Of a stretch of 64,000 bases of DNA, positions 9,734 through 11,449 are shown piece by piece. The stretch is from Pseudogymnoascus verrucosus. Its lineage: Eukaryota. Numbering within the stretch: the stretch's first letter is position 1; each line of letters begins with the position of its first letter. The stretch lies in the NCBI GenBank assembly GCA_001662655.1, contig KV460214.1; one strand, 5' to 3'. Position numbers and translations under genes: made by a program. Below the pieces are notes generated by a model. That model did not search any database and was not told where the DNA came from. It was given only the letters and a program-made list of their open reading frames with translations.

Positions 9734-11449
9734 ATGGCATTTGCCAGTACCTCGCGGGCAATATGGCTCAGCACCTTCGTCATCATCATCTGTCTCTATT
9801 TCACCCTTAATTCCGTACGTGCCGCCTCCCCCTTAACCCCTCGCCTCACCCTCACGGCCTCAACCCTCCATGCTGACATCCGCAACCAGGAAACTTTCAA
9901 TGGCACCACCACCATCCGCGCAGGCGGCAATACCCAAGCGCCCGTCGTCGAAACCCCTCTCACCCCCGAAGAAGCCTCCTGCAAAAAGCTGGGCATGATA
10001 AAAGAGGCCTCGTGCCCCGTCCCCGACACCCCCTATTTCAAGGCCCACGACTCAGACAAGACGCCCGACGACCAGCGCCCGCTCATCACCTACGCCTACT
10101 ACGAATCGCCGTTCGCGCGCGCCAACCTCAAGTTCTTCGTGGACCACGCGCTGCACGATGCGGCGGATTTCATCTTCATCCTCAACGGCGAGACGGACGC
10201 GGACAAGACCATCATCTTCGCGGACTCCGATGTCCCAGAGGACCTTCGCGACCTCATTCCTAGACGCGACAAGAAGAATATCTTTGTTAAGAAGCGGCCG
10301 AACACCTGCTTTGATCTCGGCGCGCATAATGAGGTTCTCAATAGCGTGCTTGGAGGCGAGGGATGGATCGGCAAGGATGGTCCCATCGCGGAACCCAAGG
10401 GCATGGTCAGCGCGGGGGATAACATGCTGTTGAGGAATAAATATAAGCGCTACATTCTCATGAATGCCAGTATCCGTGGCCCATTCGTGCCGCGCTGGAG
10501 CACCCAGTGCTGGACCGACTCCTACCTGAACCGTCTAACCGACAGGATCAAGGTAAGCTCAACCCACCCCCCAACAGCCCCTCACACAGTTCCACCCCGC
10601 TAACCCCCACCCCCCCAGCTCGTCGGCATGTCCTACAACTGCCACAACGGCGAAGGCCACATCCAATCCATGATCTGGGCAACCGACCACACCGGCCTCC
10701 AGGTCATGCTCACCAAAGCCGGCATCGGCGAGTGCTTCGGCGCCATGTCCGAGGCCATGTTGGCGGAGGTGCGCACCACGCAGGTCCTCCGCGACGCCGG
10801 CTTCGAGGTCGACAACTTCATGAGCGTGTACCACAGCGAGAACCGCGCGGCTAAGTACGCGCGCATGCGCGCGAAGAAGGCGAAGGGGATTAAGCAGTTT
10901 AAGCGCGGGGAGATCGAGGCTGGGGCTGAGGCTGAGGCACCAGAGCTGGTGACGCGCGAGACGGAGGAGGAGAAGAAGGCTAAGGAGGCTAAGGAGGCCG
11001 AGACCAAGGCTAAGAAGGAGAAAGAGGAGAAGGAAGCAAAGGAGAAGAAAGACAAGGAAGCTGCCGCTGCCGCCGCCGCAGCCGCAGCCGCAACGCCAAC
11101 AACAACCCACATCCCCACCGCCTCCGAAGTCGCGGCCGCCAAAGCCGCCGAAGAAGAGCGCGTCCGCCAAGAAGCCGCAGCCAAAGCCGCCGCGGAGGAG
11201 AAGGCGCGCATCGAGAAGGAGAAGAACGACAAGCTCCTCCTGATCGAGGATAACGATATGCCGGGCTACTTCTGGCGCGAGTGCAAGCACGAGGATTGGT
11301 TGGGGCCCGGGAGCTACTTCGGCACGTTCGTGCATCCGTATGAGAATCTGTTTATGAAGAGTCATCGCAAGATTGAGGATACGGTGCTGGATAATTTGAC
11401 GAAGTGGCATGATGGGTGGGGGTATGAGAGTTATGATGTTTGCTTTTAA
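9734..11449 (+). CDS. Type II membrane putative glycosyltransferase with RgpF (rhamnan synthesis protein F)-like motifs and a Glu/Lys/Ala-rich insertion (1 intron)
   Basis: N-terminal TM helix (WLSTFVIIICLYFTL). Motifs YAYYE, DFIFILNG, RPNTCFDLGAH, YILMNASIRGPF and HIQSMIWATD. Intron begins GTAAGC at about 10552 and ends with CTAAC..CAG at about 10618. The family assignment rests on motif recall only. Confidence 0.6.

Follow-up and report, generated by a model that had tools for sequence, protein, structure and literature searches.

The gene VE01_02358 of Pseudogymnoascus verrucosus encodes a membrane-anchored protein whose catalytic domain is, as judged by profile comparison, a remote homologue of the N-terminal half of the bacterial rhamnan synthesis protein RgpF, and which is predicted to adopt a GT-A fold. 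We put at roughly one half the probability that this protein is a type II transferase of the secretory pathway, most likely of the Golgi, that passes rhamnose or a 6-deoxyhexose from a UDP-sugar onto mannan or a glycoprotein glycan. The gene was found in a 64,000-nucleotide stretch of contig KV460214.1 (hereafter the window), in the order DUF5672, target gene, DUF5672, nucleotide-sugar transporter and NDP-glucose 4,6-dehydratase.

Gene Structure and Protein Architecture

Joining 9734-9814, 9890-10552, and 10619-11449 yields 524 codons and a stop, identical to P0001, the NCBI "hypothetical protein VE01_02358" of P. verrucosus (524 aa). The features of the gene are as follows.

9734-11449, plus strand: target gene VE01_02358, three exons, ATG at 9734 and TAA at 11447-11449
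9734-9814, plus strand: exon 1, Met1-Ser27, a short cytosolic tip and a hydrophobic signal-anchor helix
9758-9808, plus strand: hydrophobic anchor AIWLSTFVIIICLYFTL, aa 9-25
9815-9889, plus strand: intron 1, 75 nt, GTACGT...CTGAC...CAG; its removal gives P0001 exactly
9890-10552, plus strand: exon 2, the disordered stem (aa 29-74) and the first two-thirds of the GT-A catalytic domain
10079-10105, plus strand: PLITYAYYE, within exon 2
10163-10198, plus strand: ADFIFILNGETD, within exon 2
10295-10327, plus strand: motif 1, RPNTCFDLGAH, aa 163-173
10451-10486, plus strand: motif 2, YILMNASIRGPF, aa 215-226
10553-10618, plus strand: intron 2, 66 nt, GTAAGC...CAG, with an in-frame TAA
10619-11449, plus strand: exon 3, the remaining catalytic domain with HIQSM, a helical insert, the conserved C-terminal segment and the stop codon
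10658-10672, plus strand: motif 3, HIQSM, aa 262-266
10817-11185, plus strand: lineage-specific insert, aa 340-462, with 33 Ala, 28 Glu, and 21 Lys per 123 residues
11186-11446, plus strand: conserved C-terminal segment, aa 463-524, PGYFWRECK...FVHPYENLFMKSHR...DVCF

A preliminary description of this DNA had proposed a rhamnosyltransferase gene interrupted by an intron, which corresponds to 10553-10618; the second intron, at 9815-9889, was absent from that description, and its length is in frame, so that it reads through as an open frame. Both introns are spliced exactly in contigs of public runs with GT..AG ends: the intron 1 joint (9814>9890) in runs X2 and X24, and the intron 2 joint (10550>10617, cut +2) in runs X1 and X24. 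We regard the gene model and its splicing as established. The spliced contigs bear equally on expression of the gene, the run type being a guess for these contigs, among which the library text of X1 says metatranscriptomic.

The fusion of a transmembrane anchor to RgpF-like motifs, also proposed earlier, is evident in the sequence and in the AlphaFold model, which has a helix at residues 6-25, a low-confidence stem at 29-74 and a domain from about residue 85. A 19-aa window with a mean Kyte-Doolittle value of at least 1.6 precedes the catalytic domain in 39 of 63 family members. The modeled layout, with a short tip, a single signal-anchor helix, a stem and then a putatively lumenal catalytic domain, is that of a Golgi type II protein. 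Four cysteines (C167, C234, C287, and C523) are near-invariant in the fungi and missing from a soluble Paracoccus homologue. Golgi transferases typically combine a lumenal type II topology with conserved cysteines. The insert, modeled as two long helices (364-404 and 416-457), is missing from compact relatives and from bacterial homologues.

Remote Homology to the N-Terminal Half of RgpF

The resemblance to RgpF motifs, which the preliminary description had pointed out, proved to be a specific remote homology with three motifs in register. An alignment of 63 fungal relatives (A2) compared by hhalign with 10 plasmid-borne proteins annotated "rhamnan synthesis F family" (A4), representing the GT-A-like RgpF N-half (profile positions about 1-245), gave a probability of 96.8% and E 2.5e-10 over 169 columns, spanning aa 88-317 of P0001. 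As controls, the same fungal alignment was compared with the RgpF C-half (alignment A6; E 0.31) and with seven bacterial GT2 proteins (E 0.13); the two DUF5672 comparisons given below (E 0.53 and 0.54) served as further controls. The C-half (profile positions 263-503, NRGRD...HTKKS) is thus not detected in the fungal family, kinship of the family with that half can be ruled out at this E-value, and P0001 ends in its own C-terminal segment.

Neither P0001 nor either of its large exon translations matched Pfam PF05045 even at E ≤ 1, and P0001 had no match in NCBIfam. PF05045 (curated cut-off 25 bits) was matched at E ≤ 1 by 38 of the 63 relatives, the best at 3.1e-06, and the next family by three. 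Among the 16 members listed, 13 match PF05045. In 12 of them the match stays inside positions 2-69 of the 503-position profile; the remaining one runs over 23-163, the stretch that in P0087 holds the two motifs. With 26.6 bits, P0087 exceeds the cut-off.

Of eight aligned positions invariant in RgpF, six are identical in P0001 (D169, N219, H262, Q264, S265, and E298). The patterns shared in register with RgpF/SccG/GacG (PF05045) are R-x-N-x-x-x-D-x-G-A, N-x-S-x-x-G-P and H-x-Q-S. In the RgpF motif R-x-N-x-G-Y-D-F-G-A, residues R113, N115, D119, G121, and A122 align with R163, N165, D169, G171, and A172. N-D-S-x-x-G-P retains N219, S221, G224, and P225, while its near-invariant Asp (D144 in RgpF) is A220, a position where the whole clade of fungal and proteobacterial proteins has Ala or Ser. 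D-x-W-G...H-L-Q-S-Y-F retains G251, H262, Q264, and S265, with the invariant D166 of RgpF replaced by K248 and F184 by I267. Twelve polar residues are near-invariant across the 63 diverged members: N106, D120, N126, R163, N165, D169, N219, S221, R223, K248, D271, and E298. The earlier reading as an RgpF-like candidate is supported in part: the homology, the predicted GT-A fold and the anchor have stood, but of RgpF only the N-half is present, and the Asp of N-D-S is exchanged for Ala.

P0001 further differs from RgpF in about 30 extra residues between motifs 1 and 2, in its long helical insert, in its predicted lumenal and membrane-anchored location, where RgpF is cytoplasmic, and in its presumed donor, a UDP-sugar rather than a dTDP-sugar. 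RgpF genes occur near sugar-nucleotide genes (rfbC/rfbD in Arsenophonus, GDP-mannose 4,6-dehydratase in Brachyspira), much as the P0001 gene lies near a 4,6-dehydratase. The activity of RgpF itself rests on genetics, and the portion of the source consulted describes it as so far lacking structural or mechanistic examination (PMC6802508).

Predicted Fold and Active Site

The AlphaFold model of P0001 (pLDDT 82.3, pTM 0.70) gave 101 Foldseek matches in the PDB at E ≤ 0.001, and those listed are all glycosyltransferases, mostly GT-A, as the structural check put forward in the preliminary description had anticipated. VIA-align returned 146 chains at Z ≥ 8 (top Z 13.2), and among the 50 matches listed nearly all are GT-A transferases or nucleotidyltransferases. 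The structural alignments span about aa 80 to about aa 500-520, and the C-terminal segment therefore belongs to the GT-A domain. A PDB sequence search with the fungal-family profile found nothing below E 0.12.

The predicted structures nearest to that of P0001 are RgpF-annotated proteins of giant viruses. In BFVD the first rank is a Fadolivirus "Rhamnan synthesis F protein" (A0A7D3QV11; E 3.9e-17, TM 0.78), ranks 2-6 have E-values from 1.4e-16 to 5.9e-11, and generic glycosyltransferases begin at 2.3e-07. RgpF clusters make up 26 of the 30 named ESM Atlas matches (score 0.95). GT2-type GT-A transferases (SpsA, hyaluronan and chondroitin synthases) share the predicted fold at Z 11.6-13.2, whereas GT2 proteins have no detectable profile similarity to the fungal family (the seven bacterial proteins above) and P0001 has no DXD motif. 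The stretch LNGETD after strand 2 of P0001 presumably echoes the GT2 stretch DDGSTD.

The loop that follows strand 214-219 reads N219-A220-S221, and the DXD metal-binding motif is absent. Metal-independent GT-A enzymes exist. With Ala220 and Lys248 at the Asp positions of RgpF and no DXD, the details of catalysis must be different, or activity could be lost. We infer an inverting mechanism, and independence of metal ions is possible, with Lys248 and Arg223 standing where RgpF has Asp and Tyr.

Gene Neighborhood

The four neighboring genes are as follows.

7206-8456, minus strand: DUF5672 gene A, main open frame only, PF18922 at E 8.8e-27, head-to-head with the target gene
13991-15217, plus strand: DUF5672 gene B, open frame, PF18922 at E 5.7e-28
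16934-18152, minus strand: transporter of the nucleotide-sugar/triose-phosphate family, two open frames, Pfam TPT at E 3.2e-05
about 21778-23236, plus strand: NDP-glucose 4,6-dehydratase, at least three exons, divergent from the transporter

DUF5672 gene A may contain an internal in-frame intron and has a Lys/Glu-rich C-terminal tail; a full-length orthologue of gene B is P0250 (449 aa). The transporter scores 23.9 bits against Pfam TPT, under the cut-off of 30, and had no match among PDB sequences. Both large exons of the dehydratase have TIGR01181 (dTDP-glucose 4,6-dehydratase) as their best family, at 188.8 and 105.3 bits, so that the rhamnose-pathway dehydratase claimed earlier to lie nearby is indeed present, about 10.3 kb downstream of the target. 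A search of the 44 open frames at 18-36 kb of the window for a 3,5-epimerase/4-reductase, the enzyme that completes UDP-rhamnose, gave nothing at E ≤ 0.001.

The linkage between DUF5672 and the RgpF-like gene is conserved. Among the 36 related metagenome loci that reach 6 kb, the two are neighbors in 10: all eight orthologue-type loci (at least 48% identity to exon 2) and two more distant pairs, in L038 and L058. NCBI locus tags place them next to each other in Diplocarpon coronariae (PZA11_002737/002738), whereas in Phlyctema vagabunda they are two genes apart (PVAG01_02264/02262). The transporter is linked to the RgpF-like gene in L015, where the whole five-gene order is conserved, and, in another arrangement, in L039; the dehydratase lies within 10 kb in one of these two loci, the only others long enough (L015 and not L039). 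Paralogue-type loci have housekeeping neighbors and no sugar genes, with RING, Brix, and tRNA synthetase genes in 6 of the 12 loci examined.

DUF5672 was also considered as the missing C-half of RgpF, a candidate ruled out by hhalign (E 0.53, and E 0.54 against the fungal family). Weak leads on its fold come from the ESM Atlas (score 0.85) and from a DUF5672 virus protein at BFVD rank 36, and the two flanking proteins are probably GT-A-like transferases as well.

Relatives in Proteobacteria and Giant Viruses

The closest non-fungal relatives are unannotated proteobacterial homologues, encoded for example on a Paracoccus marcusii plasmid (WP_217846835.1) and in Polynucleobacter, Duganella, and Comamonadaceae. 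They align with the fungal family by hhalign at 99.8% (E 5.7e-29), over both the core and the C-terminal segment, share with the fungi an N-[AS]-S-x-R-G-P-F loop without Asp, and in the tree are sister to the fungal clade and separate from RgpF. At 25-28% identity to P0001, they differ from it in having neither the anchor nor the four cysteines. They sit in bacterial polysaccharide clusters, and two Polynucleobacter loci have, one gene away from the homologue, a separate gene that matches the C-half of RgpF alone. Rhamnose-specific Pfam families were matched at E ≤ 1e-9 by none of 64 neighbor proteins from seven bacterial homologue loci; these 64 are drawn from 92 open frames, the remainder being the outermost ones of L091, L094, L096, L097, and L098 and most of L095, a duplicate of L094. 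A scan of genome contigs with the Paracoccus protein recovered eight loci, and one with alignment A5 gave 25 pattern matches and no relative.

By far the best structural matches of P0001 are the giant-virus "Rhamnan synthesis F" proteins, namely that of Fadolivirus and A0A6G8MY73 of Cedratvirus (E 2.2e-13, TM 0.60), and its ESM Atlas neighbors are mostly Nucleocytoviricota RgpF clusters. Like the core of P0001, these viral proteins are a single domain of about 260-280 aa; unlike P0001, to which they are 17-20% identical, they have no anchor, stem or helical insert. A scan of viral contigs with the A2 motif patterns gave 32 pattern matches and no relative. In the part of PMC9614988 consulted, the function of the giant-virus RgpF-like protein is given as annotated only.

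Proposed Function and Alternatives

In the reading we favor, the protein would be held by one signal-anchor helix, with its tip in the cytosol and its stem and GT-A domain in the Golgi lumen. Synthesis of the donor sugar would take place in the cytosol, with the neighboring 4,6-dehydratase as its first step, and the neighboring transporter would import the product; the enzyme, probably working with the two flanking DUF5672 proteins, would then transfer L-rhamnose, or a 6-deoxyhexose from UDP-4-keto-6-deoxyglucose, onto a growing mannan or glycoprotein glycan. The anchor is observed; the lumenal Golgi location, rhamnose transfer, donor and acceptor are inferred.

An enzyme of the same fold, family and location might instead use UDP-Glc, UDP-Gal(f), GDP-Man, or UDP-GlcNAc, with the dehydratase nearby through ordinary Leotiomycete synteny, a reading we consider somewhat unlikely and yet the most serious of the alternatives. 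The sugar specificity of the RgpF family is not fixed, as the RgpF homologue of Streptococcus thermophilus may add glucose (PMC9574508, as far as the consulted part of that paper goes), and the donor-binding loop of P0001, with A220 and K248, is unlike that of RgpF. Only in the window and in L015 does the dehydratase lie close to the gene, and neither the epimerase/reductase in the window nor rml genes among the 64 bacterial neighbors came to light in the searches above. These points are set against a transporter linkage kept in two gene orders (window and L015 versus L039), a divergent transporter-dehydratase pair in both the window and L015, and RgpF-type proteins as the closest annotated relatives by profile and by structure.

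The altered active site also raises the prospect of a GT-A protein with no or reduced catalytic activity, acting as scaffold or partner of the DUF5672 transferases encoded alongside it and resembling heteromeric Golgi enzyme pairs. Loss of the acidic residue from the DXD-equivalent loop, the change of a second RgpF-invariant Asp to Lys, the strict DUF5672 pairing in the orthologue loci, and the long Ala/Glu/Lys helices of the insert together with the Lys/Glu-rich tail of DUF5672 gene A would all suit such a partner. We nonetheless hold it to be improbable, given the 12 polar residues (N106 to E298) kept near-invariant across such diverged members; moreover, the A/S and K/H substitutions recur in free-standing bacterial homologues, which argues for an altered active site that still works. 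Least probable is some other enzyme of the nucleotide-diphospho-sugar fold, such as a nucleotidyltransferase or sugar-phosphate transferase: VIA-align places GlmU, IspD, and other nucleotidyltransferases at Z 11-13, a range equal to that of the glycosyltransferases, but the specific relatives are RgpF-type proteins, the Foldseek PDB matches listed are glycosyltransferases, and the lumenal type II topology with conserved cysteines would fit Golgi transferases.

The published fungal candidates for a comparable role, and the only fungal rhamnosyltransferase candidates that our search of the literature returned, are Rht1 and Rht2 of Sporothrix schenckii, proposed to move rhamnose from UDP-rhamnose onto fungal glycoconjugates (PMC13429783; PMC12295706, in the portions consulted). 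They are described there as GT-B (GT1-like) proteins (PMC12295706), a fold with two Rossmann domains, while P0001 is modeled as a single GT-A domain; on this difference of fold they are unrelated to the P0001 family.

Distribution and Significance

A deep search for the fungal family recovered 2819 representatives at E ≤ 0.001. All named matches of P0001 belong to Pezizomycotina. According to the part of PMC8092308 consulted, the UDP-Rha pathway occurs throughout Ascomycota, with losses in Eurotiomycetes and most Basidiomycota, and a 2017 survey of 24 fungal proteomes found no Pfam RgpF homologues (PMC5872309, likewise consulted in part). Our literature search, within the listings and passages that it covered, yielded no account of a fungal RgpF-type enzyme or of the function of fungal DUF5672. 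A diverged RgpF-type GT-A family does exist across Pezizomycotina, most of whose members the Pfam model misses, and the enzymes of fungi, proteobacteria and giant viruses are thereby joined in a single family.

Very little is known of the enzymes by which fungi attach rhamnose in the secretory pathway. Rhamnose-containing wall glycans have a role in the virulence and immune recognition of several fungi and are absent from mammals, as stated in the consulted portions of PMC5872309 and PMC13429783. Against this background, VE01_02358 is a candidate for a step of cell-wall synthesis that is poorly known in fungi, and it comes with a linked gene set of two DUF5672 proteins, a transporter and a dehydratase. 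More speculatively, and with doubt outweighing expectation, the five genes may form a self-contained Golgi pathway for a rhamnan-like or 6-deoxyhexose glycan in Pezizomycotina, built on a module held in common with proteobacteria and giant viruses. If so, the cluster would hold the first fungal UDP-rhamnose transporter, two more transferases, of the uncharacterized DUF5672 family, and an RgpF-type rhamnosyltransferase that is independent of metal, with Lys248 and Arg223 in place of the acidic residues that bind it; the catalytic module would be common to fungi, proteobacteria and giant viruses by descent or transfer.

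Gene structure and splicing

A protein search with the first large exon matched P0001 ('hypothetical protein VE01_02358 [Pseudogymnoascus verrucosus]', 524 aa) together with orthologues from other Pseudogymnoascus isolates, and the source of the DNA is fungal. Scripted splicing and translation of 9734-9814, 9890-10552 and 10619-11449 yields P0001 exactly, and the span 9734-11449 of the preliminary description therefore covers a genuine, annotated gene from its ATG to its stop codon. The intron proposed there (10553-10618) is present, but the gene has two, the other lying at 9815-9889.

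Features of the target gene and P0001
9815-9889, + strand: intron 1, 75 nt, GTACGT...CTGAC...CAG, in frame with silent read-through
10553-10618, + strand: intron 2, 66 nt, carries an in-frame stop
aa 9-25: N-terminal hydrophobic anchor
10295-10327, + strand: aa 163-173, motif RPNTCFDLGAH
10451-10486, + strand: aa 215-226, motif YILMNASIRGPF
10658-10672, + strand: aa 262-266, motif HIQSM

Both junctions are joined exactly, with GT..AG ends, in contigs of public sequencing runs: 9814>9890 in X2 and X24, and 10550>10617 (cut +2) in X1 and X24. Run X23 holds a contig with intron 1 retained. We take the joined contigs to represent spliced transcripts, subject to the caveat that the runs carry no RNA label on record, the library text of X1 being metatranscriptomic. 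The Pseudogymnoascus destructans protein GMDG_05527 (P0003), 487 aa as annotated, lacks about 30 residues around HIQSM (...LTDKIK is joined straight to HILTKAG), probably through a mis-called intron rather than a true deletion.

Homology to the N-terminal half of RgpF

Pfam and NCBIfam scans of the target exons and P0001 (E ≤ 1) return nothing relevant, the sole matches being low-complexity ones on an Ala/Glu/Lys-rich stretch. A profile search recovered 109 proteins, each at E ≤ 1.9e-53, from named sources that we take to be all Pezizomycotina (Leotiomycetes, Sordariomycetes, Orbiliomycetes, and one Lichinomycete). Among them, P0087 from Orbilia carries a precomputed label for PF05045, the Pfam RgpF family; its match, which scores 26.6 bits against a curated cut-off of 25 bits, covers KVIQRENTCFDLGAH...ILMNASIRGPFLP, the first two motifs originally noticed. 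From 110 proteins we picked 63 by eye for diversity and completeness (alignment A2), omitting near-identical Pseudogymnoascus orthologues, long-insert forms, fragments, and the fused models P0016 and P0017. Scanned individually at E ≤ 1, 38 of the 63 match PF05045 (the next family reaches three members), as do 13 of the 16 members listed individually; on the 503-position profile, 12 of these matches stay inside positions 2-69 and one covers 23-163. P0001 has some 30 additional residues between the first two motifs, and this spacer plausibly interrupts the short Pfam alignment. In P0016 (Oculimacula yallundae) and P0017 (Verticillium nonalfalfae) a compact RgpF-like domain is annotated in fusion with a CN-hydrolase and a GMC oxidoreductase, respectively; both are probably merged models of neighbouring genes.

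Searching plasmids with P0087 by tblastn picked out hypothetical proteins of Paracoccus (E 1e-17); a 'rhamnan synthesis F family protein' of Streptococcus suis came up weakly, at E 0.2. Eleven annotated RgpF-family sequences were collected from plasmids of nine genera; L006:1473-2498, which aligned with the C-terminal half, was removed, leaving ten rows (A4). Although the Pfam scan of P0001 itself gives no RgpF match, the family profile does find RgpF: hhalign of A2 against A4 gives a probability of 96.8% (E 2.5e-10), aligning 169 columns at aa 88-317 of P0001, and single RgpF sequences give weaker values (E 4.1e-05 and 0.0018). The three motifs fall in the register first proposed, with R-x-N-x-G-Y-D-F-G-A on R163, N165, D169, G171 and A172, N-D-S-x-x-G-P on N219, S221, G224 and P225, and H-L-Q-S on H262, Q264 and S265.

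Control comparisons were negative, both for A2 against seven bacterial GT2 proteins (E 0.13) and for the RgpF N-half against GT2 (E 0.12). Kinship of the target family with the RgpF C-half is rejected (E 0.31), as is DUF5672, the family of two neighbouring genes, as that C-half (E 0.53); DUF5672 against A2 is likewise negative (E 0.54). We put the probability that the target is homologous to the RgpF N-half and has a GT-A fold at about 0.9.

The number of cluster representatives in an exhaustive profile search was 2819 at E ≤ 0.001, 1919 at 1e-10 and 658 at 1e-30, individual matches being drawn from the best 150 of the 2819. Bacterial homologues bearing no Pfam label come from Paracoccus, Polynucleobacter, Methylopumilus, Duganella and two MAGs, and hhalign against A2 gives a probability of 99.8% (E 5.7e-29), C-terminal segment included. 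We placed 32 fungal rows (chosen by eye), eight bacterial rows (L092 omitted) and ten RgpF rows in a quick maximum-likelihood tree, 50 rows in all. The fungal and the proteobacterial proteins each form a single clade (SH-aLRT 93 and 96), and the two together are split from RgpF (SH-aLRT 100) on long branches. The target groups with other forms that carry the insert, in a supported subclade of ten rows, and a second Pseudogymnoascus paralogue (P0049, P0056) is placed elsewhere.

Departures from RgpF

The RgpF profile is two-part, whereas the target has only its N-terminal half; the C-half, with its own motifs NRGRD and HTKKS, is absent. In two Polynucleobacter loci, a fungal-type, N-half-like homologue with no Pfam match lies one gene apart from a stand-alone gene matching PF05045 positions 263-503 only (E 1.1e-46 and 2.7e-45 in L094 and L098).

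Polynucleobacter gene pairs
L094:8001-9068 with L094:10023-11039
L098:8001-9080 with L098:9976-10953

These pairs resemble an RgpF divided over two genes, and they show PF05045 to be a two-module profile.

Six of the eight aligned positions invariant in A4 are identical in P0001 (D169, N219, H262, Q264, S265, E298), whereas RgpF Asp166 is replaced by Lys248, Phe184 by Ile267, and the nearly invariant Asp144 (of N-D-S) by Ala220. P0001 has no DXD motif. In some metal-independent GT-A enzymes, positive side chains replace the role of the metal ion; since K248 and R223 do not vary across the 63 fungal rows, we suggest that they may do so here.

The proposed membrane anchor was borne out by the hydrophobic segment and by a model helix at aa 6-25. 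A hydrophobic N-terminal window occurs in 39 of the 63 A2 members, and many of the others look like truncated gene models. C167, C234, C287 and C523 are nearly invariant among the fungal relatives; the Paracoccus homologue has neither the anchor nor these cysteines. Together, anchor and cysteines fit a lumenal domain of the secretory pathway, a location we infer from this pattern.

Predicted structure

With A2 as input, AlphaFold modelled P0001 at pLDDT 82.3 and pTM 0.70.

Segments of the AlphaFold model of P0001
aa 6-25: N-terminal helix
aa 29-74: stem, low confidence
from about aa 88: alpha/beta core
aa 364-404 and 416-457: two long helices from the Ala/Glu/Lys-rich insert
after the insert helices: C-terminal segment

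Structural alignments take the core and C-terminal segment together, with model ranges reaching about aa 500-520. The fold is GT-A: Foldseek gives 101 PDB matches at E ≤ 0.001, and those listed are glycosyltransferases throughout, most of GT-A fold, including B3GNT2 (E 1.1e-05), then B3GalT5 and PcManGT, and further chondroitin, hyaluronan and cellulose synthases and ABO transferases. VIA-align against 48,161 chains returned 146 at Z ≥ 8 (top Z 13.2), the 50 listed being, nearly without exception, GT-A transferases or related nucleotidyltransferases. No RgpF structure was found among the PDB matches of either search. Among predicted viral structures, the first rank goes to Fadolivirus, with a 279-aa 'Rhamnan synthesis F protein' (E 3.9e-17, TM 0.78). 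More proteins of giant viruses follow at ranks 2-6, with E from 1.4e-16 to 5.9e-11, among them a Cedratvirus 'Rhamnan synthesis F-like protein'; generic glycosyltransferases appear only from E 2.3e-07. The ESM Atlas agrees, with RgpF clusters making up 26 of 30 named matches (score 0.95).

Gene neighbourhood

Neighbouring genes and open frames in the window
7206-8456, - strand: DUF5672 gene A, head-to-head with the target
13991-15217: DUF5672 gene B
16934-18152, - strand: TPT-type nucleotide-sugar transporter
about 21778-23236, divergent from the transporter: NDP-glucose 4,6-dehydratase
38688-39395: GmrSD_C (restriction-endonuclease-like) open frame, unrelated to the target
52740-54533: HET-domain open frame, unrelated
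58189-59460: BIM1-like copper-acquisition domain open frame, unrelated

A dehydratase is thus indeed nearby, as had been claimed; past it come housekeeping genes, and no epimerase/reductase gene was found among 44 open frames of window 18-36 kb (E ≤ 0.001). An (AAG)n microsatellite (22020-22055) lies within the first intron of the dehydratase gene. Transporter and dehydratase, which are divergent, stand roughly 3.5 kb apart (18200-21750) and share this long upstream region, which has no Pfam match and only Pro/His/Thr-rich open frames; in metagenome locus L015 about 2.3 kb separate the same two genes.

We compared 78 related metagenome loci, 36 of them at least 6 kb long. A DUF5672 gene adjoins the RgpF-like gene in 10 of these 36, comprising all eight orthologue-type loci (L020 and L021, counted separately, seem to be one organism) and two distant pairs (L038, L058). 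Independently, NCBI locus tags place the two genes adjacent in Diplocarpon coronariae and near-adjacent in Phlyctema vagabunda. Two loci show linkage of the transporter: L039, where the genes are arranged differently, and L015, the only one of the compared loci that also has the dehydratase and the one in which the five-gene order of the window is intact. DUF5672 is probably GT-A-like, on weak leads. Lys/Glu/Ala-rich helical low-complexity sequence occurs in the C-terminal tail of DUF5672 gene A (7206-7500, - strand) and in the target insert (10817-11185, + strand).

Of 12 paralogue-type loci examined, 6 have the RgpF-like gene flanked by RING, Brix and tRNA-synthetase genes; in L019, L033, L035, L046, L047 and L069, a RING-finger protein, the RgpF-like protein, a Brix-domain protein and a class II tRNA synthetase are conserved together. 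This housekeeping setting marks the paralogue-type gene as old, stably placed and distinct from the clustered orthologue. L069 and the clustered copy L015 share one 567-kb contig, about 43 kb apart.

Implications for fungal glycosylation

A 2017 survey describes no fungal rhamnosyltransferase as characterised at that time and reports 0 Pfam RgpF homologues in 24 fungal proteomes (PMC5872309), and the candidates that have been published, Rht1 and Rht2, are GT-B proteins (PMC12295706; PMC13429783). The literature searched gave no account of an RgpF-type enzyme from a fungus. Rhamnan elongation from dTDP-L-Rha is ascribed to RgpB and RgpF, with glucose addition possible for one RgpF homologue (PMC9574508), and a further source knows of no mechanistic study of RgpF as of 2019 (PMC6802508). 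The UDP-Rha pathway is reported to occur throughout Ascomycota and to be lost in Eurotiomycetes and most Basidiomycota (PMC8092308), a distribution compatible, though coarsely, with the range of the target family. The target is very probably an active secretory-pathway glycosyltransferase, and the odds that it uses L-rhamnose or a closely related 6-deoxyhexose are roughly even. Taken together, the results describe a single-domain variant of the RgpF type that has diverged and been re-targeted, and whose gene is linked to DUF5672 genes and to a transporter-dehydratase pair.
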